Shown: positions 11,166 to 63,524 of the stretch, piece after piece
Numbering within the stretch: the stretch's first letter is position 1
Layout of the letters: each line of letters opens with the position of its first letter
From: Nemertoderma westbladi
Lineage: Eukaryota > Animalia > Xenacoelomorpha
Length of the DNA: 64,000 bases
Assembly (NCBI GenBank): GCA_032718475.1
Contig: JAUCBJ010000187.1
Span: forward strand, 1 to 64,000
Reading direction: 5' to 3'
Program-made: the position numbers and the translations under genes
The notes under the pieces: generated by a model
Told to the model about the DNA's origin: nothing
Database searches by the model: none
The model's input: the letters and a program-made list of their open reading frames with translations, nothing else

Positions 11166-11852
11166 AAACAGAGGTTAGATGTGAGGAGACTTAGAGTTTG
11201 TCGGCTTTTGGCTCAAATTTGCTCTAAGACCCCTACCCATTTGCCTAATGACTTTGGGTTTCGCGTGATTTCGCAATGGCTTCTAATCCAAAAAAAATGT
11301 GCCTATAAAAAACGAATTCCGGGTAAACTAGCCGCGAGTCTAAAATACTCACCTTTTAATTTCCCAAACTATGTTCCCAAAGAAAATAGTGCAGTCGAGA
11401 ATTAATTTGATCTATAATAATAGTAGACACGACTACGTAGAACAATGCCGATTTTCTTTTCCAAAAAAATTTATCAGTAGGCTCGCAAGCCTTCCATCCG
11501 CTCTTGTCCTCCCCAATTATAATTTTTATCTAGCTGTATCCTAGAATTCGCATTCACTGGAGATTCGTTTTTCTTAAATTTAAATCCAACCAAATGGATT
11601 TGTCTAATAATTTTTGAAAAATTGTATCACTTGTGGGTTCCAAGTGGAATTCCATTCCTACTGTACACACAATCCCGCTCCTATGTGATACATAAGGGTA
11701 CTACCCTCCATGTTCACATATAAAGACAATGGAATTCCACCACTGCCTTTATCTACAGTAAAGAGGAATACAAATGCATATACAGTAATACAAAATACTA
11801 AATTACTAAAATACGGTAAGGCTATGTGGCGGCCATCAAGGGTCCCACATCT

Positions 11853-14800
11853 CTATTTACTAAGATTGGGTGGAGATTTGTATTCTCCTGTCTCGTTTCT
11901 AGTCTCCTCAAGGAGCACGAGACGTTGTACAGGCCTATCTACGGTACGTCCGTCAATAGTCCGTACAGTAACTGTCCTTACTACACCAGATGTAGGGTGC
12001 GTGGTCAAAATGACTCCAGTCAGCCAGAACCGTGAGCGAACAACTGAGTGATTTTCCAAGATTTGTTGCCGTATCCGTCGCTATCGACAGGTACCGAAGT
12101 GGGCAACAATGTCGTCGGCGCCTGCATAAGCAGGTGCGCTGGTGTTAAGGCAAACTGTGAGTTGTTGTTGTCTGGGATCAAAGCGATCGGTCTAGTATTC
12201 AAAACTGCTTCGATTTCTATTAACAACCTCGTCAGTTGGTCGTCTGTCACTATGCGTTGCGTTGGTATTACTTTCGCCATAGCCGTCTTAATTGAGCCAA
12301 TCAGCCTTTCCCAAATGCTGCCTCTCCACAGACTTTCGGAAGTGTTAAAGTTCCAAACAATACGGTGAGGACGTTAGTGTACGTTGGTGACGGTTATAGT
12401 AGGTCATGACGTAGTTCCTCGGAAATCTGGTTTTGGTCCAACTTCCTTAAAGCTCTGGTGATTTCGTTCCGTGCACCCACAAAGTTAGTCCCTTGGTCGC
12501 AATAAATGGATTTGACCAATCCACGTCTAGCGATAAATCGCTGTAAGGCTAGGATAAAGGCGTTGGTGGTCAAGTCTGTCACACGCTCAATATGGACAGC
12601 TCTGCTGGCCATGCAAGTGAAGATCAACCCCCAACATTTTACGTGTACCCTTCCGCGTTTCACGATTATGGGTCCAAAACAGTCTATCCCTGTCTCAGTG
12701 AAAGGGGGTCTAAAAGCCTGTAATCTCGCTAGTGGTAGTTCACTCATTTCTTGGTGTCCTATCCTCGTGTGCACCTTCTTACAAATCATACAGTTCCGTG
12801 TTACCGAACTCAATGCCTTGCTAGGCCTAATCAGTACAAACCTCGAGCGTAAGTGTGATAGACAGTGGTGCCTACCTACGTGTTTGAGTCATAAATGTGT
12901 GTCCAGTATCATAGCGCGCTGTAACTCGTGGTGTTGCGGTATGATGATAGGATACCTAAAGTCAAGTGCAAAGTCAATGTTTTGGAGTTTGGACTTGTGA
13001 CAAAGTAAGCCCCTATAGATTATCGGACTCCAACTCAAAATCGGTGAAGACTTGATCTGTTTACCCTGATTGATTGCTGTGAACTCTCGTGCGAAATATC
13101 GCAATTGATAATGACGATTAATATCAACTTCACAAAGACCAACTTCCTCTAAGGTAAGTCTTCTAGGAAAGTCGCGTTTGCGTCTGGCATATTGTCTCAA
13201 ACGTTTGAGCCATGCTAACTTGCGGCACGCATCAGTCCATGATCCAGTTAGGTTTACTATCCTGTCAAAGTAAGTGTTAGTGACGTCATCAGGTAAGGTA
13301 TAGTCGAAATGTGGATACTTGTTCGGACTTGGTAGGCCCACGGGCCTTCCGGTGAGTGTCTCCCTTTGTAAAATAGGTTTGTCTGAGTCCTCAAGTAATT
13401 TAATCTCCACGGTCTTATCTTTACCGTCCGCACTCAGTGAATTGACTGGCAGTAACGGAAGCTTTCTAACCTTAGTCACACATTTACTCGTAGACGGTAA
13501 ATCAAGTATTTTCCTTGAGCGGAGTGTGATTGCTGTGGCCACACCTTCGTCCAAAGAAGTCAAATTCGGTAAGTTGTCAATCGCTAATGGGTGTGTACTA
13601 GTCCGCTCCAATGGATTCATTGCGTCCTTGTAGTACACGTCATTTCTTTCCAACGAGTCGTCTAAGGGAAAGTCTAGTAGACAGTCTGGTGAGGCATCTG
13701 GCGAACAGTCTGGTGAGACATAGCGCGGAACTTCTGGCGAAATGTCCTGTTGCCTGTCCCAAAGAAAGTCTGGCGTAGCTTCTGTCAGAAAGTCTGGTAT
13801 AAAGTCTAGTGGACAGTCTGTTGAGATGCCTGGTGGAAAGTCTGGCGAGACGTCCTGTAGACAATCTGTCGAGAGTTCCATAAAACAATCTGGCGAATAA
13901 TCCGGAGAACAATCTGGTGTCCTTTCTGGTGAATAATCTGGCGAGACATCTGGTGAACAATCCAGCGAAACGTCTGATGAAACGTCTGGTCGAGAGTCTG
14001 GTGAGACGTCTGGCGTAATGTCAGGTCTAACGTCCAGGTCATCAGATTTCGTCTGTCCTCGTTTCCTCTTGACCTTGGCGCTGGCTTTCGCTTTAGACTT
14101 GACAACAGTGTCGATTTTTATCTCGGCACCTTCCGGTATGGTATTAGTTGTTGCGTCGAATAACGGTGGCCATTCGTCTGATGGTCGTTGTAGGAAATCA
14201 GGTCCTCTAAACCAAAAGGATTTATTGTCCGGTTTACAAAAGTCAATAGGTGACATCCCCCGTGACGCGATGTCAGCTGGGTTCAGCTTCCCTGGACAGT
14301 GACGCCAATCTTGTTTGAGCGACCGGTCTAATATTTCAGCCCATCTGTTGGCTACGAAGGTCTTGAACTTGAATGTTTCGTTGTTTATGTACCAAAGTAC
14401 CAACGTCGCATCCGTCCAATATGTGACCTTCAAGTTAGCCTCCAGCTCGCGTTGAACTAGACTGACAATATCGGTGGATATCGTCCCGGCTTGCAGCTCT
14501 CCACGAGGTACAGTCATATACTTCAATGGCATTGTTCTAGCTCTTGAAGTAACGAGAGACACTTCGTAGCTGTCAGATGTCACTTGTCGTCTAAGGTATA
14601 ATATAACCCCCAGTCCGTCCTTACTAGCATCACTAAAGCTGTGAAGCTCCAAATCAGCAGGAAAGGTGGTCTGCAAAGGAAAGTATACCCTCGGTATGGT
14701 ATAGTCTTGTAAAAACGTCCGTTGGGCTTCCCAGTCCCTCCATTGCTCAGCTAACTTTTCTGGGATGGGGTCGTCCCATTCCAGTCCGGCTTGCCAAATG

Positions 14801-26762: not shown

Positions 26763-29627
26763 TGTGATATCTGGCTCCCGATCAGATCACAAAATATAAT
26801 AACATATTAAAATACTTAATATTAATTATTATTCGATAGTTTATAGTTTAAAATATCATAGTAAGTTCCCTATTAGCCTAGGACCCAACTTGTACTACAC
26901 CGGTATAATAATACAGTAGTACGCTATTTGAAATTCCCGCCAATACGGTAATAATGTAATTTATGTATATCACAACTCTCCCTCCACCGAGTATTATAAT
27001 ATACCAGTTAGTTTGTATTATAGTACTTGAGTTAATCTAACACCACTGTTTGTTTCATTTGAGCCTCCATTTAGATTAATCATTATCAGTTATCACATTC
27101 GAATCACTGGTGAGAGGGCGTAGAAATCGACGATTGCGAAGGTATGTTCTACCATTATTATCCTTCTTCACTATATATGAACGTCCATTTCCGCGAATGA
27201 ATGTGACAATTCCTGTACTCTTCCAATCTTTATGGATTTTGTCCCGAATACGAACAGGATCTCCTATAGCTAACTTTCGCAATGGGTGTGATCTCGAGTT
27301 ATATAATTGTTTATGTCGATTGAAAACATAATCTCGCTTGGTGAGTGCATTATCTATCTCCATCGGGTGTATCGAATTATATGCAGACTGGTGTGCTGGA
27401 AGATTGGTTCGTTGAAGCCTGCCAAACAGCCATTGTGCAGGGGACAACCCATCTTCTCTTGGTGTGTTTCTCCATTCTAATAGAGCGGGTTCAAAGGATA
27501 CTTTATCAAGACACCCATTTTTCCAATGTTTTTTAATTAATGTCTTCATTGCTTTAACGCCAGCCTCAGCATGACCGTTGGACTGAGGATATCCTGCTGA
27601 TGAAGTTTCATGTTCTACTCCATTTTCTGTGCAGAACTTTCCAAATTCACCTGAACTGAATTGGGGTCCTCCATCACTTCTAAGACGGTTGGGAATACCC
27701 CAATCAGCAAATAAAGTTCGTAGAGTATCGATCACATTCTTGCTCGTTGGGTATCTTCCGAATGAAGCGACACATGGCCATCCGGAATATCTGTCAACAT
27801 AAACTAAAAAGTGTTTTGCTGCATACTCAAACATGTCGGTACTAGCTGATTCGAATGGCCTTGCTGTTGTTTCAGATGAATCAGGTTTCATTGGTTCCTG
27901 AGTCTGACTTGGACGCATGGTTTGACATATCTCACAGTCTTCTATGACTTGTTTTATGTCATTTCCCATTCCAGGCCAGCAAAACAAAGTTCGAGCACGA
28001 GACTTTGTTCTTGTTATTCCCTGGTGAGATAGGTGAAGAATCTTCAATATATTACGTCGTTGACTGGCTGGTACCACAATCCTTGTAGCATCAACCATGA
28101 TCAGACCATCATCTACAGATAAGCGATTCCAGTCCTTTTTATAGCACCGACCTGGGTGGTTGATGGAAAGTTTCACAACATCAACTTTGTCCTTCACTGC
28201 ATTGTATATGATCTGATAATCATCATCATCTTTTGCAGCTGCTCTAATAATTCCAAGTGAATTATCTTTATCTATGCCAATATCATTTGATTGAAGATGT
28301 TGACAAATAATCTCTTGAATGGATATTTTATCAACAACTTTGTCAATTGGATCGGGATCTGATATTGGCGAACGACTAAGAGCATCAGCAATATTATGAG
28401 TTTTTCCTTTCACCCACTCTAGTTTAAACACATAACCCGATAATTTTTCAAGTAATCTTTGAAGACGTGGATTTTGTATAGCATCAAGATTAGTACCATT
28501 GCATATACCAATAAGCGGTCTATGATCAGTGTGGACGACAAATGCTGTACCAATAAGGTATAGTTTACAACAATATATTGCCCACTGAATAGCAAGGAGT
28601 TCTATTTCACATACAGCATATCTTGTCTCGGCATCTGATAAGTAGCGTGATCCACAACGCACTAACCGTTTACTTCCATCATTGTGTTCTTGTAACAGGG
28701 CATAACCAATTCCGGTTCTGGAAGCATCAGTTAATAAGAACGTTGCCAATTTCGGATCATAATGTGCTAGAACTGGTGTAGTTGTCAATGACAATTTAGT
28801 TGCTTCAAAGGCTTCAGTGTGTTCATCCAACCACTGATAGGCATTCTTCGGAGATAAAAGTCCACGTAATGGTGCTGACTTCTGGGCAACTCCAGGGGAA
28901 AATTGTGAGAGTTGGTTGACTAACCCAAAGAAACTTCTTAGGTCAGTGATTGTGCTAGGAGTAGGGAAGTCACGGATTGCAGCAATTTTTTCTGGATCTG
29001 GTTTAGTACCTTTGCTACTAATAATAAAACCAGCAAAACGAACTTCCTGAGCAATTATGAATTTCTTTTTTGATAAGGTAATTTGATGCTTTTGACATCT
29101 ATCCATAATTTCTCTTATAGTGACTTTAACATTATCAAATGTATCACCATAGACAAGTATATCATCCACAATTTTCAGTTTTGATGCAATGCCATCTAGA
29201 GCTGCATCACCTCGTGCACAATATTCATCTCCAGAACTTGACAAACCCATTGGAGCTCGGGCATATCTCTTCCGGCCCCATGGCGTTAAGAAAGTTGTGA
29301 ATGGTTTACTGTCATTGTCCAAAGGAATCTGCCAGTAACCTTTTGTGGCGTCTAGAGTAGCAAACCATTTCGATGCAGCTGGGACAGAAGAGGCAATATC
29401 TTGTGGTGTTGGGAAAGGGTGGACTGGTCGCTGGACAAGTTCACAAAATATAATAACATATTAAAATACTTAATATTAATTATTATTCGATAGTTTATAG
29501 TTTAAAATATCATAGTAAGTTCCCTATTAGCCTAGGACCCAACTTGTACTACACCGGTATATAATACAGTAGTACGCTATTTGAAATTCCCGCCAATACG
29601 GTAATAATGTAATTTATTTATATCACA
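26763..29627 (-). mobile_element. Gypsy (Mag-like) LTR retrotransposon with internal deletion of U5/PBS/gag/PR
   Basis: LTRs 26763-26974 (TGTGATAT...ATATCACA) and ~29441-29627; TSD ATGCC at 26758-26762 and 29628-29632; PPT GGAGGGAGAGT. Confidence 0.93.
27076..29440 (-). CDS. Gypsy pol (RT-RNase H-integrase), N-terminally deleted but otherwise open
   Basis: LDATKGYWQIPL, KIVDDIL, TDAS..GIG, TDHRPL, ADALSR, HX3H...CX2C, SDGGPQF, YPQSNGHAE. Confidence 0.93.
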
Positions 29628-31081
29628 ATGCCTTTTTGATATAAAAAGGCTCCAGGGTATTTCCAGCCAAATTTGTTCAGAAGAATTATGGACAAAGTTA
29701 TTCAGAACAAGTGCACCAAATTTCAACTTATTTCAGTTAAAATTTGCGGATAAATAGCCTTTTTAAAAATAATATCATTCTGAGATATGGGTGGTTAAAG
29801 TTTAAGGAACAATTCAAACCTTCCCGCTATTTTAGATAATATCATTTTTATTTGTTCAACAATAACTTTGTCAAAATTGAATGAAATTCTACGAAATGTT
29901 TCATGCTTGTTCTTACGTTTTGGCTAATAACTTGAGTTTGAAAAAGATATAAGAAAGATTGTAGATTTGAAATCTCCATTATTTTCGGCACATGCTTGTA
30001 TAAATATATTTCGCCATTTCCAAAATAGGGGGGGGGGGGGGGGGGGGGGGGTGCTAGCCCCACCTCCCCGCTCCTCCTCCCTCAATGAATCCGCTATCAA
30101 TGGGAAGTAATAGTGTTAAATTTTGCTACTTAGAACTGTTAAGTTACCAAAGTAACACAATTATATTTGATTGACGGATTGTGAAGCACAAATTAATGAT
30201 TCGACGATAAAAGGCGTGTTTAGAAACTAGAATTATTGACTTCCTAATAAACTGATGATAAATAATGAGAGCTGTAATTAATTGGATAATCGCATAAAAT
30301 GTAGATTTATTCCAAAATTGTAAGATTTGCTGATAAAAACTACATAATATATTATTTCTTTTTTTTAAAAGCTCAACTACAGTAATTAAAAATTTTTAAT
30401 CTTAAATTGTTACTTTTTTGCTCGAATTTAGACCCAAATCGGGAGAAAAAGTTGCACTATTTTCGCTAGGAAATAAAGTAACCACTACGTTTGCAATGAT
30501 TTTACTTTTCATCCCACCGAAAAAATTTAAACAATTTCTTAACTTTTATTAAATGTGTTCAAAGAGCATTGACGAAAAAAAGGTTTTCACGTAATTTTAT
30601 CAAAATCCATGCACGCACTCAAAAGTTATGGAAAATTTAGTGTCTGCGCGGCGTACTCCAAAACGGAACTCAATATCCAATATTGGGTTATGTTGTTAAG
30701 CGGCTCTCTAGTTACGTAATAAATATTCGAGAACACTAAATTATTTAACATTGAGTAAGGCAGCATCAGGAGTTGAAGAGTACTGTACTATAGATCAATT
30801 TATTTTGTACCACTACTGTATATCGCTGTACATTTAATTAAAGAATTAAGCAACAAAAAAAGTACCAATTTAAGAATAAAATTACGTATTATTAGGCTTA
30901 CATAGGGAAAAAAAAAAACGTAGGATTTTTTTTTTCAATATTCTCTCGACCCTTTATTAACCTCGCTGACGCACGGTAAATAAAATGCCTCGAGAATAGT
31001 GAAAAAAAGTATTACTGTACTTTAGCGGTAGATAATTATCACATAATTTAATTATCCCTCCACTCCACAAAGATATTAGAT

Positions 31082-46621: not shown

Positions 46622-48525
46622 TATAGAATTATATTCTCTAAACGCCGTGGATTTTCAAAATTTTATTTTATTCGAATTAACTTTGTTAAAGATTACATTA
46701 AGTCCTCATTTGTATTTGCTATATCTACTTGTACGATGATTATTCAAGTGGTTCAGTAGCTCAGTCGGTAGAGCGTTGGAAATTATATGTAGTGTGTATT
46801 GAGTTCGAATCCTAGTAGGTGCGAATTATTTTTTGTGCAGAATTTCAACTCATTTAAATTGACCGCTACAAATTAATTACATTTGCTCGAAGTAAGATTA
46901 ACCAATGAGATTGTAGTTATTAGATTGTAACCAATGTCGTACAAGTTATATATTCGTTGGACCAATAGCTATCTTTAAAAACCTGTTAGAACTCATAGAA
47001 CAATCGAGAATTTTCTCGATTGATTGCGGCACAAATTTGGTATAAAATGTGCGATTTCGTTCATTAGTTATATCTAAATCTCAGTCTATATCTCAATCAT
47101 TCGTGCTTTAGATTATCTTTATTAGTTATCTATTAGTTTTTTGTTACGTTTATGTATATCTTCTGTAATAAAGTCAGAATTATCGCTAATCTGCCCTTTT
47201 TCTATCTGTTCTACTATGCTTCACCACGGTGAACTCAACTGAGGGACAGGATGGCTGGCTAAACATCGGGCCACAGCAATGAACGGGAACATCTAAGGAA
47301 TGTAGACAGGAGACAACCCGCAATATCACTCTTAGTTATTCGCCCATCGCCTGAAAGGTTAGACAGCGTTCGATGCCTTGCTACCTAAGTATAAGACCAA
47401 AGATCGAAGGTAGAGGTAGTGACACGCTGTACGCCTAAAATTACATCTAGGGACTGTACTGTTTTAATTCAGGAAAAAACCGCAGTAGACCTTCATATTC
47501 CTACGGGGGAGAGCAGGCAGAGATACTAGTACGCAGATAGGACGTAGGCACACCGGTACAAAGCATACACATTGGTAGGGTGCAGCAAACTGTACGCCTA
47601 ACTCTTGCTAAGTACAGGTGCGTCTGTGACTATTTGTAGTACAACGGTGTCCATTGCATTAGAACTTGTAGGCCAGGAGGGTTACTGTGTTTCACCTGAA
47701 TTAGGATTGTACCGTTCAGGCGGTAGGGCAGTTTACGACTAGGCGGAAATAAATTGAGGCTATTTAGGGATACTAACATCTACCGTGTCCCCGCCGACAT
47801 CCTGATAGGAAGTTACCAAGCCCACCTAGGTAACCAAAATTCTAGATAGGACGCCAGGCTAGCTATTAGTAACCGTACGCCTACTGTAGTAAACTAACAC
47901 ATTTCTTCTTAGTATTAGGGACCTGGTAAATTAAAATTGCCGAATTCTGGGCGTAGCATTAATCTTATGCCTGAATTTGAGTCCTGGAAATACGCAAGAG
48001 GGGAAGGAGCCTTATCATTCGTGAGTATTGGACCTACAAGTTACAAAATTAGAATATTCGTAAAATGCACACCGTACCCAGTAATTATATATATGAAGGA
48101 GCAAAACTGATCTTGACGGTTCAGAATTAACACACGCGTGTTGGAAATTATTTACACCTCAAAATATATAAAATTAACTTTGTCCGTACTGCACTTTGCC
48201 CGCTAGTTAGACATCTCCAGATCTCTGCACCTAGCTAGCGTCCTTTTCGCCCAACCATATAAATCACACCGCGGCAAAGTATACGAGCCCCTTAGTCCGT
48301 CAGTGAGTCAGCCTGATTTTAGGATTCGCTGCGCGGGATTTTGTTTTATCGAAGTTTGTCCGTTCGTAGACTGTTTTCTGCCTCACCGGTTATAAGAGAC
48401 CGATACTGCAATATATTCGCCTACTTGGAGTTTACTGTTTTGGTGAGAAGGTCGGATTTATGATTTGATTCACAAACTTTATAGTATGATATTGCAGGAT
48501 TCGTGTATTTGTTACTGTCTCTTCA
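46622..48525 (+). repeat. 5' LTR of element B (1904 bp, TA...CA ends)
   Basis: Reverse complement of 61622-63524; CCAAT boxes at ~46902, 46931, 46962; TATAAAA at 47041. Confidence 0.92.
46750..46834 (+). ncRNA. tRNA-derived Pol III cassette in U3 of LTR B
   Basis: A box TAGCTCAGTCGG 46757-46768; B box GAGTTCGAATCC 46801-46812; T6 at 46829-46834; no good acceptor stem. Confidence 0.72.
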
Positions 48526-49340
48526 TTTAGTAGGAATATGTTTTACTGAACTACGGTTCGGTAGGACTAAAGTTATTTGAAAATTTTTGTATTTTGAGAT
48601 AAAATTTATATTTGATTAGCTAAGTGCTAATTTTTTGAAATAAAATTTGATTTGAACCGCGTGTAAAATATTTTGGAATTGAATACCGGTGTTTAAAAGT
48701 GTTTAAATACCATATTGTACCGGTACAAAATTTTCGTAAAAGTAAAACCTAACTCTTTTGTTTTTTCAGGATTCAGAACTCATTTCTAGACTGTAACGAG
48801 AGCAAGACCGTGTTTAGCAAGTTTGGGAGATAGATAACCCAACAACTTTGGTTGGGAAAATCGCACTTCGTCCGCAACGCTGGAAACGGAAAGGTTCACG
48901 TCCGGTTTGTATCTGGGAATCTGTTTTTCTGGAGAATCATTGGAGTGGGTGAGTTTGAAAAGTTGCATAAATAAGTTAGGCATTACCGTATTAGTTAAAA
49001 TTATTGTGGGTTCCACTGTCTCAAGTATTTATGCATTCTGTACGATTTCTTTGTTCATTGCTGAATTAGTCCGTATTATTGTATTTAATTTACCTTTTGA
49101 TAACGCATATCGTTATCCGATTTATTTGTTATAAAATTGGCCGCTAGGCTAATTTTATTATATACTTATTCCGTGACATTTATTTGCTGTAAAATTGGCC
49201 GTTTAGGCTAATTTTATCCATCTGCTATAAAATCGGCCGGTAGGCTAATTTTATATGACTGTAATTAGTACCGTTTAAATATAAATACGGTAAATTTGAT
49301 ACTTTGACACTCACATTTTACTTGACTTACAACTACCGAA

Positions 49341-52300
49341 ATGAGTGACAAACAAGACTATACGAAGAATACACCTACCGACTATGACTCATGTGACACG
49401 GATAAGTCAGCAACGGAAGAACTACAAGGGAAGACTCGCGAGCCTACCGAACCTACACCGTGTGCGTCACCAGTACATCCAACGGGAGTACCGGATGCCG
49501 TAGTACGAGGCGACGGCAGGACCGAGGACTTTCTAACTGTTCCGCAACCTAGATACAGGGAAACGGACATGGTAAGTTCAGTAGGAAGCCAGGAGAGTGT
49601 GGTTAGAATCGTCGGAGGCTACATGGCGCATATTACCAGGAGTATTGGAGAAGGCCAACGCATATTAGACGAGTTAACCGCTCCGATGTCTCGGTTTGAG
49701 TTCTACACCCTCCAGGTTAGAGTATAAAGTAGAGTACATAAGTCCGTAGATAATCTAATTGGTCTACAAGATCTAGCTAGACAGAGACAGGACGTGGATA
49801 CTCAACTTAGAATCCTCGAGAAACTAATGATCGCTAGAGAGAAACTGATTCAGTTTAAGTCGACGATTAGGCAGATACAACAGGAACAAGCGGACCAGTT
49901 GTTAGGTGAGTCAGTTTCGGACGAATTATTGCAGCCCGAGGAAGAACAGGAACTGTACCGACTGGATGGACAATTGAAACATCTGACGGACCACTTACGT
50001 ATGTGCGGCGAAGACGTCGGCGATTTGGAAACCGTGCCGGAATATATGAGGGAAACTTCACCCGTACAAATCGAATCGGCACCGGGAATACTGGACCAAT
50101 CGTTAGTGAGTATTCGCATTGAAATTGGCGAGGTAAGTATAGTGACGTCAGAAATTTCCAGACAGCAACAACAGCACTATAGACAACAACGGGAAATTGA
50201 GGAACAAACTCAACTGTTGACGGCACAAGCGGCGGTAGAAGAAGAAAAACTACGCGTTGCAAATGTTGCGAGAATCTCTCAGCTGCAAGAACAAGCCGAG
50301 TTGGAAGCGGCTGAGATGGAAAGGTTGGAGCTAGAAATAGCACAGCGAACAGCGGCAGCTGAGTTAGCGCAACAAGCGGCAGCAGCTGAGTTGGAACGAC
50401 AAGCGGCAGCGGCTGCGCAACAAGCAGCAGCAGCGGAGTCGGAGCGACGAGCAGCAGCAGCTGATTTAGAGCGACGAGCAGCAGCGGCTGATTTAGAGCG
50501 ACGAGCAGCAGCGTTGGAAGAACACAAGCGTATTTCGGAAGTAAGAGCTGAGATGAAAAAACGGCAAATAAAGGCTCAATCAGCTATACGATAAGTGGAG
50601 TTCGAGGCGCAACAACAACAGACGGAACAACGCGAGAAAGAAGTTAAACTTCATTTCGAACTCGAGAAGAAGGCGAGAGAATTAGCCAACGCGAAGGAAG
50701 ATCTGGATCTACAAGCCCGCGATCGATCGATGAGATCTCGTGACGGACATGATTTGGACCAGATAGAGGTAAGGCACCGCCAAATTCAGGAACGAATGAA
50801 GGAAGGAATTGTAGGGGCACCTGGGGGAGAAAGACAATTGGTTAAAGACTTATGTCAAAGATTCCCTCAAGTAACTCCTATGTTTGCACCGATTCAGACT
50901 AAGGAACCTGTTTCGATTGCTGGTAGTAGTAATATTTCTCCTATCCATGGTGCGACGGAACACAGGTTTGTTATTCCGGACAAGTTTACACCGCCAAGAG
51001 CATCGTCGTCGCCCATTCTGAAAGTCAAGGTAAGTAAGCCACCGATTACAGATCGTAGTAGTTTGTTGACCGGACCTGCACTACTGACGACAAAACAGGT
51101 GAGTCCACCTTCGACACCAAAACCCGTTATGCATTACACATACCCAATGACGTTTAGGCCTACAAGGCCTTTAGATTCAAACGCTGTCATTCGACCACCG
51201 TTTAATCAGTTTACATCGCAATCTACAACTTCGAGGAAAACTTGTGAGCTTACCGAACAACGGAGAACAGTGGATACGCGACCGTTTAATCAGTTTACAT
51301 CGCAATCTACAACTTCGAGGAAGACTTGTGAGCCTACCGAACAACGGAGAACAGTGGATGATGTTCCGAAACGGAATGTTAGAATTCGAACGACACAACG
51401 GACGCGAGCACGTCGACCACCGTATCCAGGTGACAGTAGTACTTCAGCGAGTCGGATTACCCGGAACGCGAGGTATTTAGAACAGGAGCGGCCGACGAAT
51501 ATAAACGTGAGCGTTCAGATAACTCCTTTATCGATAATCCTCCACACAATACACCAACACAGAAAGCGTTACAACCAACAGACGCGATTAGTACGCAACA
51601 ATTCGCCGATCTAATGCGACCAGTTGTAGACAAGTTGGCCCAGATAGAAGAACGTTTAGAAGAAACTCAAACTGATAGTTCGCGAGGTAACGAGTTCGAA
51701 CACTCTAGACACCCGAAGCAGCAAAGAAAACAACCCTCGAGAAACACCTCGTATCAGGGAAAAGCGCCAAGATGAGAGAACATCAACTCGATTGCCAACC
51801 AAGGACGCGAAACTTTGAACGTGGCCGAGGAGATAGCGAAATTTGCAGCGAGACAAGGACTACCGGTGCAACAACCACCTAAGTTTTCCGGTAACTCGAA
51901 ACATTGGCACACCTTTGTGGACTACATCGAAACACAAATAGCAGCGTGCGCCTTTACATCAAGGGAAAAATTCAACTACCTGCTACAAACGTTGACGGGA
52001 GAACCGAAACGTTTAGCGGAGACCTTTGTCGGTGTACCAGACGCCTTCGAACTAGCGTACGATCGCTTAACTTCGATTTACGGAGGCACCGTAAGCATGG
52101 CTAAGTCAGTCATAGAAGAACTCTGTAAGGGGGGGGGCTATAACAAAACCCGTTGACTTACTGAAATTAGCTGACGAGATTAAGAACGACATTACTACAC
52201 TACGCTCGATTGGACAACTTGACTACGCGAATACTCCGACAGTCCTATTGAAAATAATAGGAAGATTACACCATCGACTTCGTCGGGAGTGGCGAAAGAT

Positions 52301-55300
52301 AGAATATCAGCGAGAAGAGAGGGGCGGATTCTTGAAGTTGGAAGACGTCTACTTACTGATATTCAGAGAGGCAGTAGTCGAGACGCGTTCGAACTACACG
52401 GACCAACATATTGTGGTGGAAGGAATAACCTTACCATCCTCCAACAGACAAAAACCACCGATGACATCCACAAAGACGGTTACCTACGCAACATCGACCG
52501 ACACCCGACAATTTTCGGACAGTAATAAGGTATCCGCACCAATTGGAACCAAACAGATCCGACAGCAACTGAGCACAGACTTTAGCGGTTGCCAATATTG
52601 CGAACGGCTAGGTAAACGACATACTAGCCATAAACTGAGAGGTTGTCGACTATTCCGCGAATTGAACTCGGAGGAACGACGACTGCAAATACGGCCATTG
52701 GACTCTTGTTGGCGGTGTACGCTACATGGACATGTCCGTAAAGACTGCCCAAATACAGACACCTGTCCTTCCTGTGGACGCAACCATGACGGTTTGCTCC
52801 ACACAGACAGTCATACGCCGACCAAACGCTTCACCAGGGAACACCCGGAAGCGGCAGCAAGATGCAACACAGCATATAAGGGTCGAGAGTCAAAAACAAC
52901 ACCGACTTTCGTGACACACATTAGAGATTGCTTCTCGGAACAATCAGGATCGTCGGATGAAGAGTCGGAAGACGAAGACGTTTACTTTGATACTGGAGAC
53001 GAACAACCATTGATTGCACTTCTGACGCCTGATCAACTAAAGGGGTTTAGTATAATTCCTGTCAAGATTACTGGCACCAAAGGGAGCAAAAGGATCTACG
53101 CTATCCTGGATTCAGCCTCATCTCATAGCTACGTGGATGAGAAAGTAGCTGATGTTGTGACGGATCTCCGACAAGGTAAGAACGTCAGTTACACCGTAAG
53201 TAGTATGCATGGACAACGTGCAATACCAGTGACACGAGTTAAGTTGAACTTAGACACTCTTCTTCCGAAATCGCAACATAGTGAAAAGGAGAGGTCTTTG
53301 TTACCCTTTAAAGATTTAACTTTTGCGGCCACAAAGGACTTTAGTAACCTACTAGGTCCTGTCCCAGAACAATCCTTGGAGGACCGTAAGTACTTCAGAC
53401 ACCTTGGTGTACCTGAATGTCCTGTCAACTATAGGTCGGTAGCAATGCTGATCGGGACAGATCAATTCAACCTACATCAAGTGTGGGAAACCAGACCATC
53501 GGGAGTCGTAGCGGGAAACGCATACGCCTGTAGAACGCCGATAGGGTGGTATACTCGAGCGCCTGTGCGCACACTGGATATAAGTGACGAGGAAGACGAT
53601 ATACAAAGTACATGTAGTTTATTAACTACAACTTCGACTCATTCCTTTTCACAAGACGTAGACTATACTACACTACATTCGACAAAACATGACACGACGT
53701 GTGTAGCGAGTATGATAAGTCACAAGGAGCAGCTAATCCACCAGGTGAGTTTAGAACTTGGGAAGAAGACGAGTCAGCCAGAGATTCCCTCGACGACAGA
53801 TGATAACGCCGGAAGGCTTGCGAGTCTACCTCAACCAATAACCTCAACAATGCCCGTCGATATCGATGACGACGCGTTAAGAAATCATCAAGTGGAACAA
53901 GCTGCACTGGACAAAGAATTAACGGAGAAGACTATCAGGTGGTTAGAACAAGATACAGCCGAACCTGGTAGCTACGAACCATGTATGTCGGAACAAGAGA
54001 AACAATCTTTGAAGATCATGGAAGATACTATCCGCCAGACGAAAGACGGACATTATGAGGTAGGGATGCTATGGCGTAACCAACGTCCTAAACTCATAAA
54101 TAACTATCCGCTAGCCTTAAGACGTTTACACTCAATACGACAACGTCTATTAAAGGACGAGAAAGCCCATCTGCAGTATAATACTCAGATGGAGACGTAT
54201 TTAACGAAGGGATACGCTATCAGAATGACTAACCCAGAGATTGTGACTGACCAGACATACTACTTGCCACATCACTTCGTGAGACACCCCGACAAACCAG
54301 ACAAAGTACGTGTAGTCAATGACTGTGCGGCTCTGTTTGAGGGAATGTCCCTCAATAGCGAGTTGATGGATGGACCAAACATGAATAATTATCTTATGGG
54401 GGTGATTATGCGCTTCCGTCAGCGTCAAGTAGCCTTTACTTGTGACGTCGAAGCTATGTTTCACCAAGTGCGAGCGTTAGAGCGAGACAGAGACAGTTTG
54501 AGGTTCCTCTGGAACCCGGAAGGAGACTTAAGTCTACCACCGGCGACTTACCAAATGCAAGTACGCGTTTTCGGTGCCAGGGACAGCCCAAACTGTACGA
54601 TGTACACCCTAAAGCAAGCCGCTAGGGATCAGAAACATATATATGACCCAGAGATAATCAAGATCGTAGAACGTGACTTTTACGTAGACGACGGGTTACA
54701 GAGTTGTGACACAGTAGAACGTGCTATAACAGTAGCACATCAATTACGGGACTGCTTAGCGGGCGGAGGTTTTAACCTCACCAAATTCGCCTCAAACAGT
54801 GCCGAATTGGTAGACTCATTCGGAACGACTGAGCGTGGAGGTGGTGACATTGACCTAGAGTTCGAACCACTACCGACGACCAAGGTGTTGGGGCTCTTTT
54901 GGGACCCAAACACGGACAACTTTCGAGTGAAGGTGAGACTGGACACTCAAGAAAACACTCTGACAAAGAGATCCTGCTTGTCAAAATTGAGTCGATTGTT
55001 CGATCCATTAGGTTTCATCAGTCCAATAATACTGCAAGCCAGAATTTATATGCGCAGTATTTGGAAGGATGGACTGACATGGGACGAGCCGATCTCATCA
55101 GAACAAGTGGACTTATGGAAAACCTGGGAGGCAGAATTATCTTCACTAGAGGATTATTCCATACCCAGAGTGTACTTTCCATTACAAACGACATTTCCTG
55201 ACAATTTGGAATTACATTGTTTTTCCGACGCCAGTGACAACGGCTTTGGTGTGGCAGCGTATTTACGCAGACAAGTAGACTCAGACGAGTTTGATGTTTC

Positions 55301-58300
55301 GCTCATTACTTCTAAGGCTAAGACCATGCCTACTAAGTATATGACGACGCCACGCGCTGAGCTACAAGCCGCAACCCTGTCAACCACAATCGTGAACCTT
55401 ATACAGACGGAACTACAGTCAAGTTTACAGATATTTTATTGGACTGACGCGACGTTGGTTTTATTTTACATAAACAACGACACACTTGAATTCAAGACAT
55501 TCGTAGCTAACCGTCGCGCAGAAATTCTAGACCATTCAATAAAGGAAGATTGGCGACATTGTCCCAGACCACAAAACCCAGCCGATATTGCGTCACGAGG
55601 AATGATGCCCGAGGAATTCTGTAAACCGGAGAACAAAGAATTTTGGCAGCACGGACCACAATTCTTGCAAAGATCAACACTACATTGGCCGCCACTATAT
55701 GACAACAAGTCTAACACTATCCCTAAAGACGCCGAAATTAAAAAACCAAAGAAAGGGAAAGCAAAGAAAAGGACGGCAGCTAAACTTAAGAAAAAACCGA
55801 AGGCGAAATGGAAAGATATAACTTCAAAGGTCAAGAACGGAAGACTTGCGAGCCTTTCTACACCAGACATATCGCCAGACGATCAACCAGACACGTTACC
55901 AGACGTATCGCCAGACGCGTTACTAGACGGTCAACCAGACGTTTTGCCAGACATGTCACTAGATATTTCGCCGGATGTTCCGCGAAACATTTTACCAGAC
56001 ATGTCACAAAATGTTCTACCAGACACTAGTAACATATTGACAAATAGTAAAGCCGCAGTTTCTCTATTGGAGCGGCCTTGTATTGACAAACTACCAAATT
56101 TGACACACTTGAGTAACCATAAGCACAGTGAAACCTCATGTATTACAGATGTGGGTAGTACCTACGCTAATGTAAATACAGGTGTTACTTTGCGCTCAAG
56201 AGACATACCAAACTTGCAACCTATGGCGAGACCTGGGATTAATATCGGCAGAAAAATAAGTTTACCGAAACCCACTGACCCCATAGATTTCAAACCACCA
56301 TTAACGATTGACTTACAAAGTACTGACAATCAAGGTAAGAAAACAAAGAAGGACAAATTACTTGTAGACCCGGACGGATTAACAGTCAACAAGGGAATAC
56401 CTACCGGCGGACCCGTGGGCCCTTCTAGTAAATCAAAACCTTCCAAATTCTCCATTGACTTACCTGATGACGTCACAAATACTTACGTCGACCGTACCTA
56501 AAGAGGTGAGGTCTCTATAGGGGTGCGGTCAACAGGCGGCGGCAGACTCGTGAGGGTCTGGGGGCACGTTAAATCCGTAATATAGTGTTGGGGAGTCACT
56601 GAAGGCCCTCGTGTCTAACAAACCATGAATTGCCATGGTGCCGTGGTACCGTCTAGTCGGCCTGTTGCCGTACTGCCAATCCTGTACACAGTAGGGGTGG
56701 TGGCATGGCGTGATTTGTGGCTCATGTGGCGTGGACTATGTTTTGTATGTGGGCGATCAGTGGCAGTTTGCTTGGGGCTTGGATGGTTCCATTGACCGTC
56801 AGCTGTTCCGTTTTTTTGATACTATATGTTATTGTCTCCATGTTCAGCTGATTTGGTCTTTGGTGGCATTGGAATAAACCGTCGGGTCTTGAGTTTTCTG
56901 TTGCTGTGGGTATGTGAGTACACGTGATTGTATGTGTGGCCACTGCGAGTGGGTATGGGAACCCTTGCCAGTTGGTCCAGACGCCGCTGGTATTAGTAGG
57001 ACCATACTTTACTGCGCCCCAGCATACTTTGTGCACACAAAGTTATTTTGCCCTGACGGCAAAATAAGGTACTCTCGATTTTCCGGTCGTCGATACAATT
57101 TTGTCCCCTCCGATTTTGTCTTTCCCGATTTTGACCCCGATTTTGTCTTACCCGATTATGTCATCTGTGTGTGCATGGTATGTGTCAGATTTGTGTTTAC
57201 CGTAGTGTACTTGATTTCGTGAACATCTGTTGAGTACACGTGTACAGGACGGGTAAGTGGTTACTTGTTCCTAGCTTTCGAGCTAGTCAATATTGTTTGT
57301 GGAACTTACTTCCCCTCAATATTGCCGGCGAGGCAGGTGAAAACGTGTCAATATTCCATGTTGGGTAGCGCAAGCCCGCTTGGGACAAGACCGTCGGTTA
57401 GGCCCAAGGGCGACCTTGGTGCTCGATCGCTATCGACTGGTCCACCTGCCGGTTGACTCTTTGTTATACTTTGAGTTGGCTCAATGTACAGTCAGGCCAC
57501 AGTAAGTTGACAGTAGCCGCCCATCTGGCTACACGTTCGACGAGCTGTGCTGGTGTGATCGGGGGACCGAAAACAGAACCCGGGAAGCATCAGGCCACCC
57601 TCCGGCCCGGTCTGATAATAACATCTGTCGGACTGGCCCCAGGGGTGGTGGAAACACGTCCGCCTCGTGGGTGCGCCTCGGGGAGGAGCCCAGAAGGACG
57701 AAAGCGATTGTAAACCTAACAGACTCTTGGACAAACGCTTGCCGAAAATTAGCGTGGATTGTACGTTTTGTACAATACGTTAAAGGCAAACGCGACTTTA
57801 CACGTCGACTTACATTGACTGAGATTGACAGGTGTGAAATTAAATTAATTCGCCATTACCAACTGCGATATTTCGCACGCGAATTCACATCTATAAATCA
57901 AGGTCAACCAATCAAGTCGTCACCAATATTGAGTTGGAGTCCGATAATTTATAATGGCTTAATTTGTCATAAATCTCGGCTTCAAAACATTGACTTTAAC
58001 ACAAACTTTAGATACCCAATAATAATACCGCAGCATCACGAATTACAACGTGCAATGATACTGGACGCACATTTACATCTGAAACATGCTGGAAGACACC
58101 ACTGTCTTTCCTACTTACGTACAAGATTTGTATTAATTAGACCCAGTAAAGCGTTAAGTTCAGTGACACGTACGTGTATTATTTGTAAAAAGGTACACTC
58201 TAGAATAGGTACTCAAGAAATGAGTGAACTTCCACAAGCACGACTTCAAGCATTCAGACCACCTTTTACAGAGACTGGAATTGATTGCTTTGGTCCCATA

Positions 58301-59105
58301 CATACGAAACGTGGACGTATACTAGTAAAACGCTGGGGACTGATTTTCACATGTATGTCCAGTAGGGCAGTTCATATTGAACGTGTGATGGATCTTTCCA
58401 CCAACGCGTTTATACTAGCATTGCGGCGATTTATCGCTAGACGCGGACTAGTGAAATGCTTGTACTCAGACCAAGGGACAAACTTTGTTGGTGCCCGAAA
58501 TGAAATTGCTAGAGCCTTTAAGAAATTAGATCATGATCAAATCTCAAACGAACTACGTCCTTACAAGATTGTTTGGAAGTTTAATCCTCCAGATAGTCCA
58601 TGGAGAGGCGGAGTCTGGGAGAGATTGATTAGATCTATAAAAACAGCCATGGCAAAAGTAATTCCAGTAAACCACATTTTGACAGACGACCAACCGACAA
58701 CACTGTTTGTTGAAATCGAGGCAATACTAAATACTAGACCAATAGTATTAGTACCCGATGACAAACAATCCCAGTTTGCTTTGACACCGGCACACCTGCT
58801 TATGCAGGCACCGACTACTTTGACGCCTATTTCTTTTCCAATGGAAGGCGATAGCTACGGTAGAAAAGCGTGGAAAATCACGCAACTACTAGCTAACAAA
58901 TTCTGGGAAATATGGCAAAACCATTATTTGCCCTCTATTTCTGCCAGAACAACATGGTACAATAACACCCGCGCATTAACGTACTGTGACGGTACGGACA
59001 ATTGACGGTCGTACAGTAGACAGACCGACTCAACGTCTCGTACTTCTTGAAGAGACTCGAAACGAGTCTGGAGACTACAAATCTCCAACAAATGTTAGTA
59101 AATAA
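49341..59105 (+). pseudogene. gag-pol of BEL element B; gag disrupted, pol open over 52248-56495 + 57707-59005 once the intron is removed
   Basis: PPKFSGNSKHW; CCHC knuckles; PR ILDSASSHS; RT DFYVDD; RH LHCFSDAS; IN GIDCFGP, SDQGTNF, PWRGGVWERL; small deletion near 58980. Confidence 0.94.
56496..57706 (+). ncRNA. Group I self-splicing intron (subgroup ID-like), 1211 nt, in BEL pol
   Basis: 5' exon GACCGU pairs with IGS GCGGUC (56525-56530), U.G at the splice site. P3 GGCAGGUG(57332-39)/CACCUGCC(57443-50). P4 CG(U)GUC/GACCG. P7 U(C)GACUG(57433-39)/CAGUCA(57489-94). P8 57451-57481. J8/7 CAAUGUA. Terminal G57706. Excision gives ...YVDR|IVNLT, matching A's YFDRIVNLT. Confidence 0.88.
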
Positions 59106-59159
59106 TTAGGAGTTTACAAATAGATTTCCACGTACCTGTACACTGTAGTAAGGACAGCG

Positions 59160-59255
59160 GTAGAATTCCATTGTCTTTATATGTGAACATTGAGGGTAGT
59201 ACCCTTATGTGTCACATAGGAGCGGGATTTGTAGGTATAAGAAATGGAATTCTAC
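59160..59255 (+). other. Conserved structured RNA element downstream of pol (A copy at ~11644-11740, minus strand)
   Basis: 13-bp closing stem with a compensatory change between A and B; three inner hairpins; internal GGAGCGG. Confidence 0.65.
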
Positions 59256-59530
59256 TTGGAACTCACAATATTGAGACATTTTCGAAATTTTAGACAATCC
59301 ATTTGGATTTGAAAAATTTTTAAAATTTTCTCCAGTGAATAGATTTCAGGGTACAGTCGGGTGGAACTTAAAATTAGAGAAACAAGAGAGGAAGACTTGC
59401 GAGCCTTTCTTAAAAATTTTAATTAAATTTTACACGGTCTTGTTTCAATAAGTTACGTCAAAATAGACTTCCCTATATTTATTACTAATTCTTGACTGCT
59501 TATTTTCTGATAATAGTTTGGGATCAAAAG

Positions 59531-59735
59531 GTGAGTATTTTAGACTCACAGCCAGTTTAGCCCAAATTCGTTTTTATTTCGGCAAAAAATTTTAGATAAG
59601 AAGCAGCGTGTCATTAAAGAAACCCTAGATCTTAGGCTCTGGGTAGGAGGTTAGAGCGTTGTCGAGCCAAAAGGGCAGACGAAAACTCTCACGTCTCCTC
59701 ACAACTAACTACAAACTCTGTTGTATTCCCTCTAG
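59531..59735 (+). other. Putative spliceosomal intron in the ORF2 leader (A copy 11153-11352, minus strand)
   Basis: AAAAG|GTGAGTATTTTAGACTC donor, CTAAC branch point and pyrimidine tract-CTAG acceptor conserved in both families. Confidence 0.6.
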
Positions 59736-59766
59736 TAGTAATGATTATGTAACTACACCTCTAATT

Positions 59767-61621
59767 ATGGAGAAGGAGATACATGGAGAGCCGAGATGGG
59801 GATATGATATCCAAGAGGAAGCAGCAGCGCCATTCGAGAGATTTGGAGCCAAAGACTACACTATATTTGGTATAAAGGAATTATCAGAAAGTACTGCGAA
59901 ACTCGCGAGAACTAAATATGACTCGAATGTATTAAAGAGAAGGCAAAACGCATTAAATGAAAGAATCGAAAGTTTGCGCAAAACCTTCAATGAACTTTAC
60001 CCGTACGACGCTTTGTGTGATACGGGAGACATTAGCGAAGACCCCGATACTGAAATTAGTCGTTTGTATCATACCATGCAATACCTAAAGACGCACGAAC
60101 CTATGCCTGCGGTACGCGATGAATTCGATGGAATGCACCTTTACAGACGAACTCGAGGGGACGATAGAGAAACCAAGGAAGCATTTTCAGTTTATAAACT
60201 TTATTATCAATGCGGTTCTTGTATGCGCGAACAACGAAATGCGATTCCAATGCGTTTGAATAAGGAAAATCCCGAACCGATATTGGCGAGGTGTTCGAAC
60301 CATCAACAACTACGCTACCAGGAAGGAGGGTATCCTTTATCAAATCCATATCATTTGTTTGCTATGACTGGACCAAAGGCGGGAGAAACTGTCGTTTACC
60401 CACCTAAGGTTGTTGAACCCGATGCATTTGAACTTACGCTGGACGAGGCGAATCAGTCAACCCGCGAAAAGAAAGAAGCTCTTAGCCTATACAGAGCCTA
60501 CAAGGCTTTCGAGAAAGGTGAGATGGAAGAATGGGGCGGAAGACTCGCGAGCCTACCTTACCATTGGACGTCACACGATCAAACTCCAGCTAAGGAGATG
60601 ACACCGGAAGTTTTCGAGAGCATAAACTTTGCTCAAAACGTTATTCAGAGACTACAGATTGCATCCCCGGAGAGGACAAGAGAAATGCAACCATATAGTA
60701 CTTCGACTACGAAACCATTGAGTACGACACTCAATTTTCCTATTAGTATACCAGTCCGACAGGATACGACGTACGAAATACCCATCGTGGATCATCCAGA
60801 AATCATTTCAAACTTGGAGTTCCTTCCTGCAGTTGTTTTTAGCGATATGAGTAAGATATATGATTTACGTAGACATATTACTCAAAAGGTCATGTATAAC
60901 GTTCCACCTCATATTCAAGACTTTAGGGAACTGGATAGAGCTGGTGCTGATATAGCTCCGAGTAATTTGAAAGGATATTTAACCAGAACGATTCGTTTAT
61001 GGATTGGAACTGGAACCTTCGAGTCGGATACAGATATTGCCGCGGATTGGCGAGGTAAGGTTATTCGTTTCGAAGATGATAAGGACATAGAGAAGATTTG
61101 GCAACCTTCGGAAGAATTGTTGGACGAATGGAATAGAACGTTTAGATCATTTTACGATAACGAGGGCGGCAGTCATCAACAGAGTTTGACTTCTAAGACT
61201 ATACAAATTAGAGCGGCGGACGGAGTCTTGCACGTTTTCAGTAGACAGAGGAGCGACAAACGAATGCCGATACCTCCAGCAAATACAAAGTGACACCATC
61301 TCATCACTGACATAGTAAAGAAGATGGACCAAGCTTGTAATATCGATGCTAGAATGCTACCGAAGATGGTAAGAAATATGATTTTAGATAAAACTGTCGT
61401 AAAGATTGGATCAGGAGTAAGAGAGGACTTAATTAGCGACTTTGCCGGCATGACGGACAGCGATGACCGACTACCGACACCGTACGTCGACACTCGACCT
61501 CTTATTTTGTGGTCTATAGAACAGGGATATTTTCGTGAGTATAATACTCAGAAGACTGGAACTGGATACATTTCCTACCTGTTATTCAATTGGGATTATA
61601 AGGAAAGTAAGAGAGCTGATG
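59767..61621 (+). CDS. Extra 3' ORF (ORF2) of element B: Cys/His N-terminal domain plus C-terminal DEDD 3'-5' exonuclease-like domain; one in-frame stop (61291-61293), truncated by B'
   Basis: ORFs 59659-61293 and 61324-61635 are in the same frame. TIQI...LHVF, LPKMVRNMILDKTVVKIGSGVREDL and YVDTRPL resemble WRN-exo/EXD/mut-7 motifs (by eye). Confidence 0.6.
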
Positions 61622-63524
61622 CGAAGAGACAGTAACAATACCTGCAATATCTTACTGTAAAGTTTGTGAATCAAATCATAAATCCGACCTTCTCACCAAA
61701 ACAGTAAACTCCAAGTAAGCGAAAATATTGCAGTATTGGTCCCTTATAACCGGTGAGGCAGAAAACAGTCTACGAGCAGACAAACTTCGATAAAACAAAA
61801 TCCCGCGCAGCGAATCCTAAAATCAGGCTGACTCACTGACGGACTAAGGGGCTCGTATACTTTGCCGCGGTGTGATTTATATGGTTGGGCGAAAGAGACG
61901 CTAGCTAGGTGCAGAGATTTGGAGATGTCTAACTAGCGGGCAAAGCGCAGTACGGACAAAAGTTAATTTTATATATTTTGAGGTGTAAATAATTTCTAAC
62001 TCGCGTGTGTTAATTCTGAACCGTCAAAATCAGTTTTGCTCCTTCATATATATAATTACTGGGTACGGTGTGCATTTTACAAATATTCTAATTTTGTAAC
62101 TTGTAGGTCCAATACTCACGAATAATAAGGTTCCTTCCCCTCTTGCGTATTTCCAGGACTCAAATTCAGGCATAAGATTAATGCTACGCCCAGAATTCGG
62201 CAATTTTTTAATTTACCAGGTCCCTAATACTAAGAAGAAATGTGTTAGTTTACTACTGTAGGCGTACGGTTACAAATAGCTAGCCTGGCGTCCTATCTAG
62301 AATTTTAGTCACCTAGGTAGGCTGGGTAACTTCCTATCAGGACGTTGGCGGGGACACGGTAGATGTTAGTATATCCCTAATAGCCCCAATTTATTTGCGC
62401 CTAGTCGTAAACTGCCCTACCGCCTGAACGGTACAATCCTAATTCAGGTGAAACACAGTAACCCTCCTAGCCTACAAGTTCTAACGCAATGGACACCGTT
62501 GTACTACAAATAGTCGCAGACGCACCTGTACTTAGCAAGAGTTAGGCGTACAGTTTGCTGCACCCTACCAATGTGTATGCTTCGTACCAGTGTGCCTACG
62601 TCCTATCTGCGTACTAGTATCTCTGCCTGCTCTCTCCCCCCGTAGGAATATGAAGGTCTACTGCGGTTTTTTCCTGAATTAAAACAGTACAGTCCCTAAG
62701 ATGTAATTTTAGGCGTACAGCGTGTCACTACCTCTACCTTTGATCTTTGGTCTTACGCTTAGGTAGCAAGGCATCGAACGCTGTCTAACCTTTCAGGCGA
62801 TGGGCGAATAACTAAGATGATATTGCAGGTTGTCTCCTGTCTACATTCCCTTGATGTTCCCGTTCATTGCTGCGGCCCGAAGTCTAGCCAGCCATCCTGT
62901 CCCTTAGTTGAGTTCACCGTGGTGAAGCATGATAAAACAGATAGAAAAGGACAGATGTGACAAGTATTTCTAACTTTTATTACAAAATCAAACAATAACT
63001 ATTATACAATAAACGATGTAATCTGAAATAATAATCTGTGTAAGAATGAAGATGTGTAAGAAAGATAGATTGATAACTAATGAACGAAATCGCACCTTTT
63101 ATACCAAATTTGTGCCGCAATCAATCGAGAAAATTCTCGATTGTTCTATAGGTTCTAACAGGTTTTTAAAGATAGCTATTGGTCCAGCTAATATATAACT
63201 TGCACGACATTGGTTACAATCAAATAACTACAGTCTCATTGGTTAATCTAGGTACAGACAAATGCAATTTAATTTGTAGCGGTCAATTTAAATGAGTTGA
63301 ACTTCTGCACAAAAAATAATTCGCACCTACTAGGATTCGAACTCAATACCTACTACATATATAATTTCCAACGCTCTACCGACTGAGCTACTGAACCACT
63401 TGACTAAACATCGTACAATAGATATAACAAATACAATGAGGACTTAATGTAATCTTTAACAAAGTTAATTCGAATAAAATAAAAATTTTGAAAATCCACG
63501 GCATTTAGGGAATATAATTCTATA
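61622..63524 (-). repeat. 3' LTR of a second family-B copy (B') in opposite orientation; tRNA-like cassette at 63311-63397
   Basis: Reverse complement of 46622-48525; adjacent to CCGCTCCATGAAAACAG (63525-), the same PPT junction as in element A at 9653. Confidence 0.92.

Follow-up and report, generated by a model that had tools for sequence, protein, structure and literature searches.

A likely self-splicing group I intron with an ID-type core in the pol gene of a BEL/Pao retrotransposon, with inferred spread by reverse splicing

The pol gene of a BEL/Pao retrotransposon located in the analysed window (the whole stretch of DNA, 64,000 nucleotides) contains a group I intron with an ID-type core, which is likely self-splicing and which, we infer, has spread by reverse splicing; this combined reading is held with reasonable confidence. 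The intron occupies positions 56496..57706 of the forward strand and carries no endonuclease ORF, as seen from its sequence, from intron-less joints in public runs, and from its match to a model, R1, introduced below. Taken together, the data point to a genuine group I intron, likely active, in a genomic setting that is new for such introns.

The host element, hereinafter element B, spans 46622..63524 (+) if the 1.9-kb repeats on either side are included (at 46622-48524 and, in inverted orientation, at 61623-63524), as delimited by sequence comparison. The 5' part of pol, comprising the protease–RT–RNase H region, is open over 1460 codons (52116..56495, +; PF05380, E 1e-42), and the 3' part with the integrase region, identified by Pfam and by relatives, lies at 57707..59005 (+). 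The pol domains (PF05380, PF17921, PF18701), with the integrase last, are of the Pao type, and relatives of this pol are 34–43% identical to it. Element B is degenerate, its gag region being broken by stops and frame changes. Its repeats are 92% identical, and the left copy is co-oriented with the 5' LTR of a related element A, situated on the minus strand. Since the LTRs of element A are direct and the repeats of element B are inverted, so that the latter lacks two direct LTRs, element B looks rearranged; the inverted repeats may reflect a rearrangement, a separate solo LTR, or a misassembly. In both elements, pol is followed by a 548-aa ORF (59647-61293, +; homolog at 11147-11759, −) with no Pfam or Atlas match. 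At 58979-58983, a contig from the public run X4 has 104 letters against three in the window, and thus the window copy has likely suffered a deletion near the end of pol.

The window as a whole is a nest of LTR elements. It also contains a short gypsy-type element with a partial pol only (27076-29460, −), framed by 192-nt LTRs that are 98% identical (26784-26975 and 29438-29628), and, near its start, two long ORFs without a Pfam match (2165-3214, +, and 4486-5868, −); a tRNA search of the window found none. For the 3' pol part, 120 relatives were listed, of which 20 are named by organism, namely, 19 animals and one bacterial bin; the neighbouring gypsy protein likewise has 120 listed relatives, nine of them so named (seven aquatic arthropods and two bacterial bins). 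BEL/Pao elements have been described as a metazoan group (PMC3118150). Transposon matches do not by themselves prove a taxon; an animal nucleus is nonetheless a very probable location of the intron. The initial, sequence-only reading, which had placed the insert in a BEL/Pao pol gene of a probable animal nucleus, is in line with the Pao-type Pfam domains and with the predominance of animals among the named pol relatives.

The insert (1211 nt, GC content 0.52 against 0.43 and 0.40 in flanks of equal length) lies between ...GAC CGT and ATT GTA..., with no target duplication and with a boundary ambiguity of a single base (A on both sides). The pol frame (52116-56501) reaches a stop two codons past the start of the insert, downstream of which the 3' frame resumes. 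At the homologous site, element A, which is 71% identical to element B over the intron-site region, reads D-R-I-V-N-L-T without interruption (D-R-I-V at 13255..13266, −, located by sequence comparison). Contigs skipping exactly 56496-57706 occur once each in the public runs X1, X2, and X4, where the shorter arm of the joint has 40, 19, and 189 letters, respectively, and twice in X6 (shorter arm of 40 letters); run X3 yields only near variants of this joint. The joined exons in X4 and X6 may equally stem from transcripts or DNA of intron-less copies. These natural empty sites fix the ends of the insert: U before it, G as its last base (G57706), and no duplication. Thus, several earlier observations made on the letters alone stand, namely, a GC-richer 1211-nt insert splitting CGT|ATT without a target-site duplication, the uninterrupted DRIVNLT in element A, and the 5' exon ending in U with the insert ending in G; the search for intron-less copies, suggested at the same time, has returned exact joints in X1, X2, X4, and X6.

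An insert of equal length, shifted two bases to the left, begins with GT (56494) and ends with AG (57704), and hence removal by the spliceosome might be considered. The product would read D-P-I in place of the D-R-I of element A, with proline at this position in none of 28 homologs; moreover, the 3' end is purine-rich and has no pyrimidine tract, and no joint at 56493/57705 is among those listed. We regard spliceosomal removal as hardly credible.

The ends defined by the empty sites agree with a ribozyme fold. In P1 (56490..56530, +), the exon end (56490-95) forms six out of six pairs with the internal guide (56525-30), including a U.G pair at the 5' splice site; base-by-base checking extends the helix by the first four intron bases to ten out of ten (exon end and intron start against 56521-30), and the guide holds the same position in relatives. 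The proposed pairing of GACCGU with GCGGUC, U.G included, is thereby not only reproduced but lengthened. P1 is followed by a conserved 5' block (56531..56670, +) comprising the P2 hairpin (56543-60, with a GNRA loop) and subsequent stems, which was identified by blastn, alignment, and folding and is common to viral and eukaryote-like relatives; according to the alignment with relatives, one conserved 5' hairpin has diverged in the window copy. Further downstream, a non-coding central expansion with short direct repeats (56770..57320, +, limits approximate; folding z about −0.3) occupies the place where the aligned relatives have a variable hairpin. The catalytic core (57324..57496, +), supported by the R1 match, folding, and covariation, comprises P3, P4, P5, P6, P7 with the G-binding site, P8, and J8/7. 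In it, P3 (57332-39/57443-50) forms eight out of eight pairs, P6 four out of four, and P8 nine out of nine; P4 has one bulged U; P7 (57433-39/57489-94) contains a U-A pair, a bulged C, and a G-C pair. The pseudoknotted order of helices is correct, P4, P6, and P8 following in sequence within the P3–P7 core, and the layout originally proposed (an 8-bp P3, P4, P7 with a bulged C, P8, and J8/7 in canonical order) is thus borne out base by base. The P9 domain and the 3' end, with the terminal G at 57706, occupy 57495..57706 (+) and were recognized by motifs common to relatives. P10 with the 3' exon is weak, having 3 bp only, two of them G.U. Of the tetraloops reported initially, the GNRA loops are in place, capping P2 and P6, and the UUCG hairpin (approximately 57271-57286) is present but closed by a U-A pair. 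Folding z-scores are not diagnostic here: −4.0 for the P9 domain and −1.45 for the core, yet −4.35 for the 3' exon.

A search with Rfam, the first check suggested for the insert (RF00028), yielded no group I match in the window at either gathering or E-value thresholds. The same group I models also miss all 15 control loci (taken out of 24 relatives), including introns at the cob and cox1 sites, and have no match in the seven eukaryote-like loci described below. Rfam thus appears blind to this intron subfamily, and further cases in animal genomes may have been missed. We relied on model R1, built from 17 AT-rich mitochondrial-type cores, none of them from the window or from viruses; the set was selected out of 26 extracted cores by excluding long, near-duplicate, and eukaryote-like ones. 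Over the 64 kb, R1 gives one hit, 57324-57496 (57.8 bits, E 1.7e-12), and the next one scores 10.5 bits; 26 positions match by construction, because the training set was chosen with two window motifs. Agreement elsewhere in the core is not built in: among the 86 matches to the two motifs alone, the 3' strand of P7 is found in 85 and P3 with at least seven of its eight pairs in 80. Both flanking motifs, moreover, occur once each in the window, at the correct places, with chance means of 0.10 and 0.03.

Covariation provides further support. In 40 aligned cores (an alignment fitted to the model except in P7), 97.8% of cells pair, 16 out of 26 pairs change on both sides, and none of 500 shuffles matches this covariation, which covers P3, P7, and P8. 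The first P7 pair, which is not part of the model, is UA in 15 cores, CG in 14, AU in six, GC in two, and other in three, and the bulge beside it is C next to UA or AU and A next to CG or GC. Such covariation of the P7 bulge with the neighbouring pair is the pattern of the guanosine site. Judging by all these features, the insert almost certainly adopts a group I fold. The assignment of the core to the ID type, put forward in the sequence-only reading, is supported by the R1 score and by motifs common to cob- and cox1-site introns, with the reservation that the R1 training set is partly circular. In fungal mitochondria, cob 393 and cox1 715 are group ID sites (PMC7595605).

The intron is represented in the host runs by many variant copies. 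On 56400-57800, we obtained 988 contigs from X2, 132 from X4, and 11 from X6, counts that do not amount to a copy number. Position 56527 within the guide differs from the window in 14, 11, 16, and one contigs of X1, X2, X3, and X4, respectively, and in X1–X3 such contigs account for about two thirds of the summed depth; contigs with the guide letter of the window are present in the same three runs. The window copy itself has private differences from most contigs. Immediately behind the terminal G, or with one base in between, two contigs of X4, three of X2 (agreement 0.61), and one of X3 pass into unrelated sequence, and these other 3' flanks have no match in the window. One of them is similar, with two mismatches, to a gag peptide of element A, an observation that we do not count as evidence. 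In X4, depth over the intron exceeds that over the near flanks; this was not used, since contig depth cannot rank parts. Because of the variant copies, the variable guides, and the other flanks after the terminal G, the intron appears with good confidence to be a multi-copy family occupying several insertion sites.

These contigs also bear on whether the window copy results from a chimeric assembly, or from host sequence to which viral or symbiont DNA has been joined. Its nearest kin are viral, and no contig among those listed bridges its own exon–intron junctions. Against that, the guide pairs with the exon at ten out of ten positions, the insert ends exactly at the empty site, contigs with the guide letter of the window occur in X1–X3, and the same four runs, from three studies, contain numerous variant contigs over the intron as well as over the pol flanks. 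An artefact of this kind is very improbable.

One X4 contig carries the end of the SMART template-switch primer and a fourth G directly before 56496; the primer itself ends in three G (PMC8579666, table). The first splicing step is expected to yield RNA that starts at the first intron base and bears one additional G; the matching structure is seen here in a single contig. Capped RNA likewise gives an additional G at its 5' end. Run X4 is on record only as "DNA?", and none of the listed runs is recorded as RNA. In the single X4 contig that covers the guide, its letters form four out of six pairs with the window exon, and so the primer-plus-G contig likely comes from another copy or site. Circle joints are absent among the listed joints, where contigs can show presence but not absence.

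The same observations help to weigh the possibility of a single ancient insertion at the pol site that was amplified as a passenger and is now a decaying or protein-dependent relic without self-splicing. The degeneracy of element B, the weak P10, the diverged 5' hairpin, and the private differences of the window copy all fit such a history. It is at variance with the intact state of all core helices, with guides that vary and other flanks that begin right after the terminal G, and with the primer-plus-G contig at the first intron base, and we consider it improbable. Splicing is probably still active in the intron family.

Pattern scans for relatives returned 24, 55, four, and 33 loci. They include mitochondrial introns, such as L001 at the cob site and L017 at the cox1 site, as well as introns in or beside giant-virus genes for capsid protein, RNA polymerase, and DNA polymerase and in a virophage capsid gene. 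Loci L002–L024 we take to be iridovirus-like from the C-terminus of their capsid protein. The core of the window intron is 70–75% identical to that of the viral subfamily, and the 5' block and P9 motifs are common to both; the nearest kin is thus formed by capsid-gene introns of giant viruses and virophages and by eukaryote-like copies, ahead of mitochondrial ID introns. A common motif immediately follows the guide in the relatives, and the guide itself differs with the target. Pairing of the guide with the own exon at six out of six positions, with U.G, is found in the window and in L002, L004, L019, L046, L064, L069, and L093, and was not found in L084 and, against the apparent exon, in L054.

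Several viral and mitochondrial-type loci deserve separate mention. In L046 (130-599), a virophage major capsid gene has a family member two codons past its apparent start; in the giant-virus contigs L084, L091, L093, and L100, two or three members occur within a few kilobases at capsid or RNA polymerase genes; and one viral relative has a DUF7487 ORF adjoining the intron. L080–L083 are ID cores beside cob- or cox1-like peptides in bacterial genome assemblies, likely due to mitochondrial contamination.

Seven metagenome loci (L036, L044, L052, L054, L064, L069, and L070) hold the family in eukaryotic-looking, non-viral DNA. In L069, an 810-nt copy with U|...G ends lies in the same contig as a precisely empty unit of its repeat (intron at 95-904, empty unit at 2614-2773); this repeat, AT-rich, tandem-like, and from another organism, has no Rfam match. 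Family members in L070, L052, and L036 likewise lie in AT-rich, tandem-like repeat DNA, with the 5' half missing from the L036 copy. L064, L054, and L044 have members in microsatellite-rich or AT-rich non-coding DNA; in L064 (minus strand), situated in CT-rich repeats, the guide matches the CT-rich flank at six out of six positions. The 3'-end motif of the window occurs in four of 66 distinct cores, namely, the L036/L069 group, L054, L064, and viral L106. A 5' loop common to the eukaryote-like copies was seen by eye, and a pattern written for it matched none of the 66 distinct cores.

In phylogenetic trees, the window row belongs to no supported clade, and tree tests are compatible both with a placement beside the eukaryote-like copies (p-AU 0.35) and with one beside the iridovirus-like introns (p-AU 0.25). 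As the trees leave the window unplaced, we name no donor; the kinship suggests a possible viral origin. A pattern specific to the window copy had no match in metagenome contigs, phage records had no match to the intron, none of the 229 relative loci had a retroelement protein beside the intron, and the viral contigs contained no BEL relative.

The proposed mechanism would start with a free G attacking the U.G pair in P1 and becoming added to the 5' end of the intron, whereupon the exons would join into an open pol mRNA. In unspliced RNA, translation would stop two codons into the intron, before the integrase, and this RNA would serve as the template carrying the intron into new retrotransposon copies. 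A copy made from spliced RNA would lose the intron and a copy made from unspliced RNA would keep it, which would account for the observed coexistence of filled and empty sites in DNA. New sites would be picked by the 6-base guide, which differs between copies: the intron would reverse-splice into RNAs, and enzymes of the retroelement would reverse-transcribe and integrate them. A spread route that needs no endonuclease, namely, reverse splicing guided by 4–6 bases and followed by reverse transcription, has been proposed for group I introns (PMC10964413, PMC3679873). The longest ATG ORF of the intron has 96 aa, and no endonuclease gene was found in it; hence, reverse splicing would be the simplest route to new sites, and a retroelement RNA as the target would supply the otherwise missing steps of reverse transcription and integration. 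The sequences lean slightly towards spread by this route.

The alternative is movement at the DNA level by a protein acting in trans, as in IStrons or with a homing-endonuclease parent located elsewhere, the central expansion being a gene relic. Precise insertion without duplication would suit such enzymes too, IStrons move to unrelated genes (PMC13565253), an ORF of the DUF7487 type adjoins a viral relative, and several sites are occupied in one genome. We consider this route unlikely, given that the intron has no ORF longer than 96 aa, that its central region has no protein-level match to the relative loci, that no longer form is seen among the listed joints and loose ends, and that the core is of the ID type, with IStrons belonging to IA2 (PMC13565253).

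More tentatively, the reverse-splicing reading may be extended to a protein-free ribozyme family, kin to the capsid-gene introns of giant viruses and now mobile in nuclear genomes of animals and other eukaryotes, which would combine a variable 6-base guide, reverse splicing into retroelement and other RNAs, and fixation in DNA by a borrowed reverse transcriptase. If true, the whole route of reverse splicing, reverse transcription, and integration could for the first time be followed in a natural system, and the ribozyme would act as a switch between integrase mRNA and intron-carrying genomic RNA. According to one review (PMC3679873), the complete path from reverse splicing to integration in a genome still lacks evidence; with an intron whose RNA is normally reverse-transcribed and integrated, this route becomes testable. 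Tools for RNA circularisation and trans-splicing could likewise profit from a ribozyme that works in animal Pol II transcripts.

According to published reviews, nuclear group I introns occur in no genes other than the rRNA genes of microbial eukaryotes (PMC3679873; restriction repeated in PMC10964413), and a database of 42,459 introns lists, for multicellular animals, only placozoans, corals, and sponges, mostly with mitochondrial IB4 introns (PMC11835236). The corresponding statement of the sequence-only reading agrees with these reviews and is to be refined in that endogenous polinton-like viruses of protists carry nuclear group I introns outside rRNA genes (PMC12220804), and putative ones have been mentioned for the rDNA spacers of sharks (PMC8393795, with reference to a meeting abstract of 1997). 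Its other statement, that no case is known of a ribozyme intron in a Pol II-transcribed retroelement of a probable animal nucleus, agrees with our title-level survey of mainly open-access literature: apart from partial precedents (the two just named, giant-virus capsid genes, and bacterial IStrons), neither an LTR retrotransposon nor an animal protein-coding nuclear gene appeared there with a group I intron, although the database files of PMC11835236 could contain such records. A multi-copy group I intron in the protein gene of an animal retrotransposon thus breaks the rRNA-only and mitochondrial pattern.

Known systems resemble the window intron in different respects. Fungal mitochondrial ID introns (cob 393, cox1 715; PMC7595605) are similar in core sequence and in the layout of P3, P4, P6, P7, and P8; in contrast, the window intron resides in a nuclear retroelement, has no LAGLIDADG or GIY-YIG gene, differs in the 5' and P9 domains, and has U-A/C rather than C-G/A at the G site. 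The capsid introns of giant viruses and virophages (L002–L024, L046, L047, and L084) share the core, the 5' block, P9, and the guide position, yet measure 400–550 nt and sit in viral genes, whereas the window intron has 1211 nt and sits in a retrotransposon of the host genome, and the tree does not group them; the group I introns described in the capsid gene of Faustovirus E12 (PMC6247863) may belong to this subfamily. IStrons likewise are group I ribozymes that move to unrelated sites, with the insertion hidden by splicing, but they are bacterial, of the IA2 type, and carry TnpA/TnpB (PMC13565253), whereas the window intron has no ORF longer than 96 aa. Introns of polinton-like viruses are also nuclear-integrated, outside rDNA, and near a capsid gene; as described, they belong to DNA viruses of protists, have 309–376 bp, and are detected by RF00028, and they are found neither in a retroelement nor in an animal (PMC12220804). 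Finally, the nuclear introns of rRNA genes (PMC3679873, PMC10964413) have the nuclear location and the proposed spread by reverse splicing in common with the window intron, which differs from them in occupying the protein gene of a retrotransposon, presumably transcribed by Pol II and likely in an animal.
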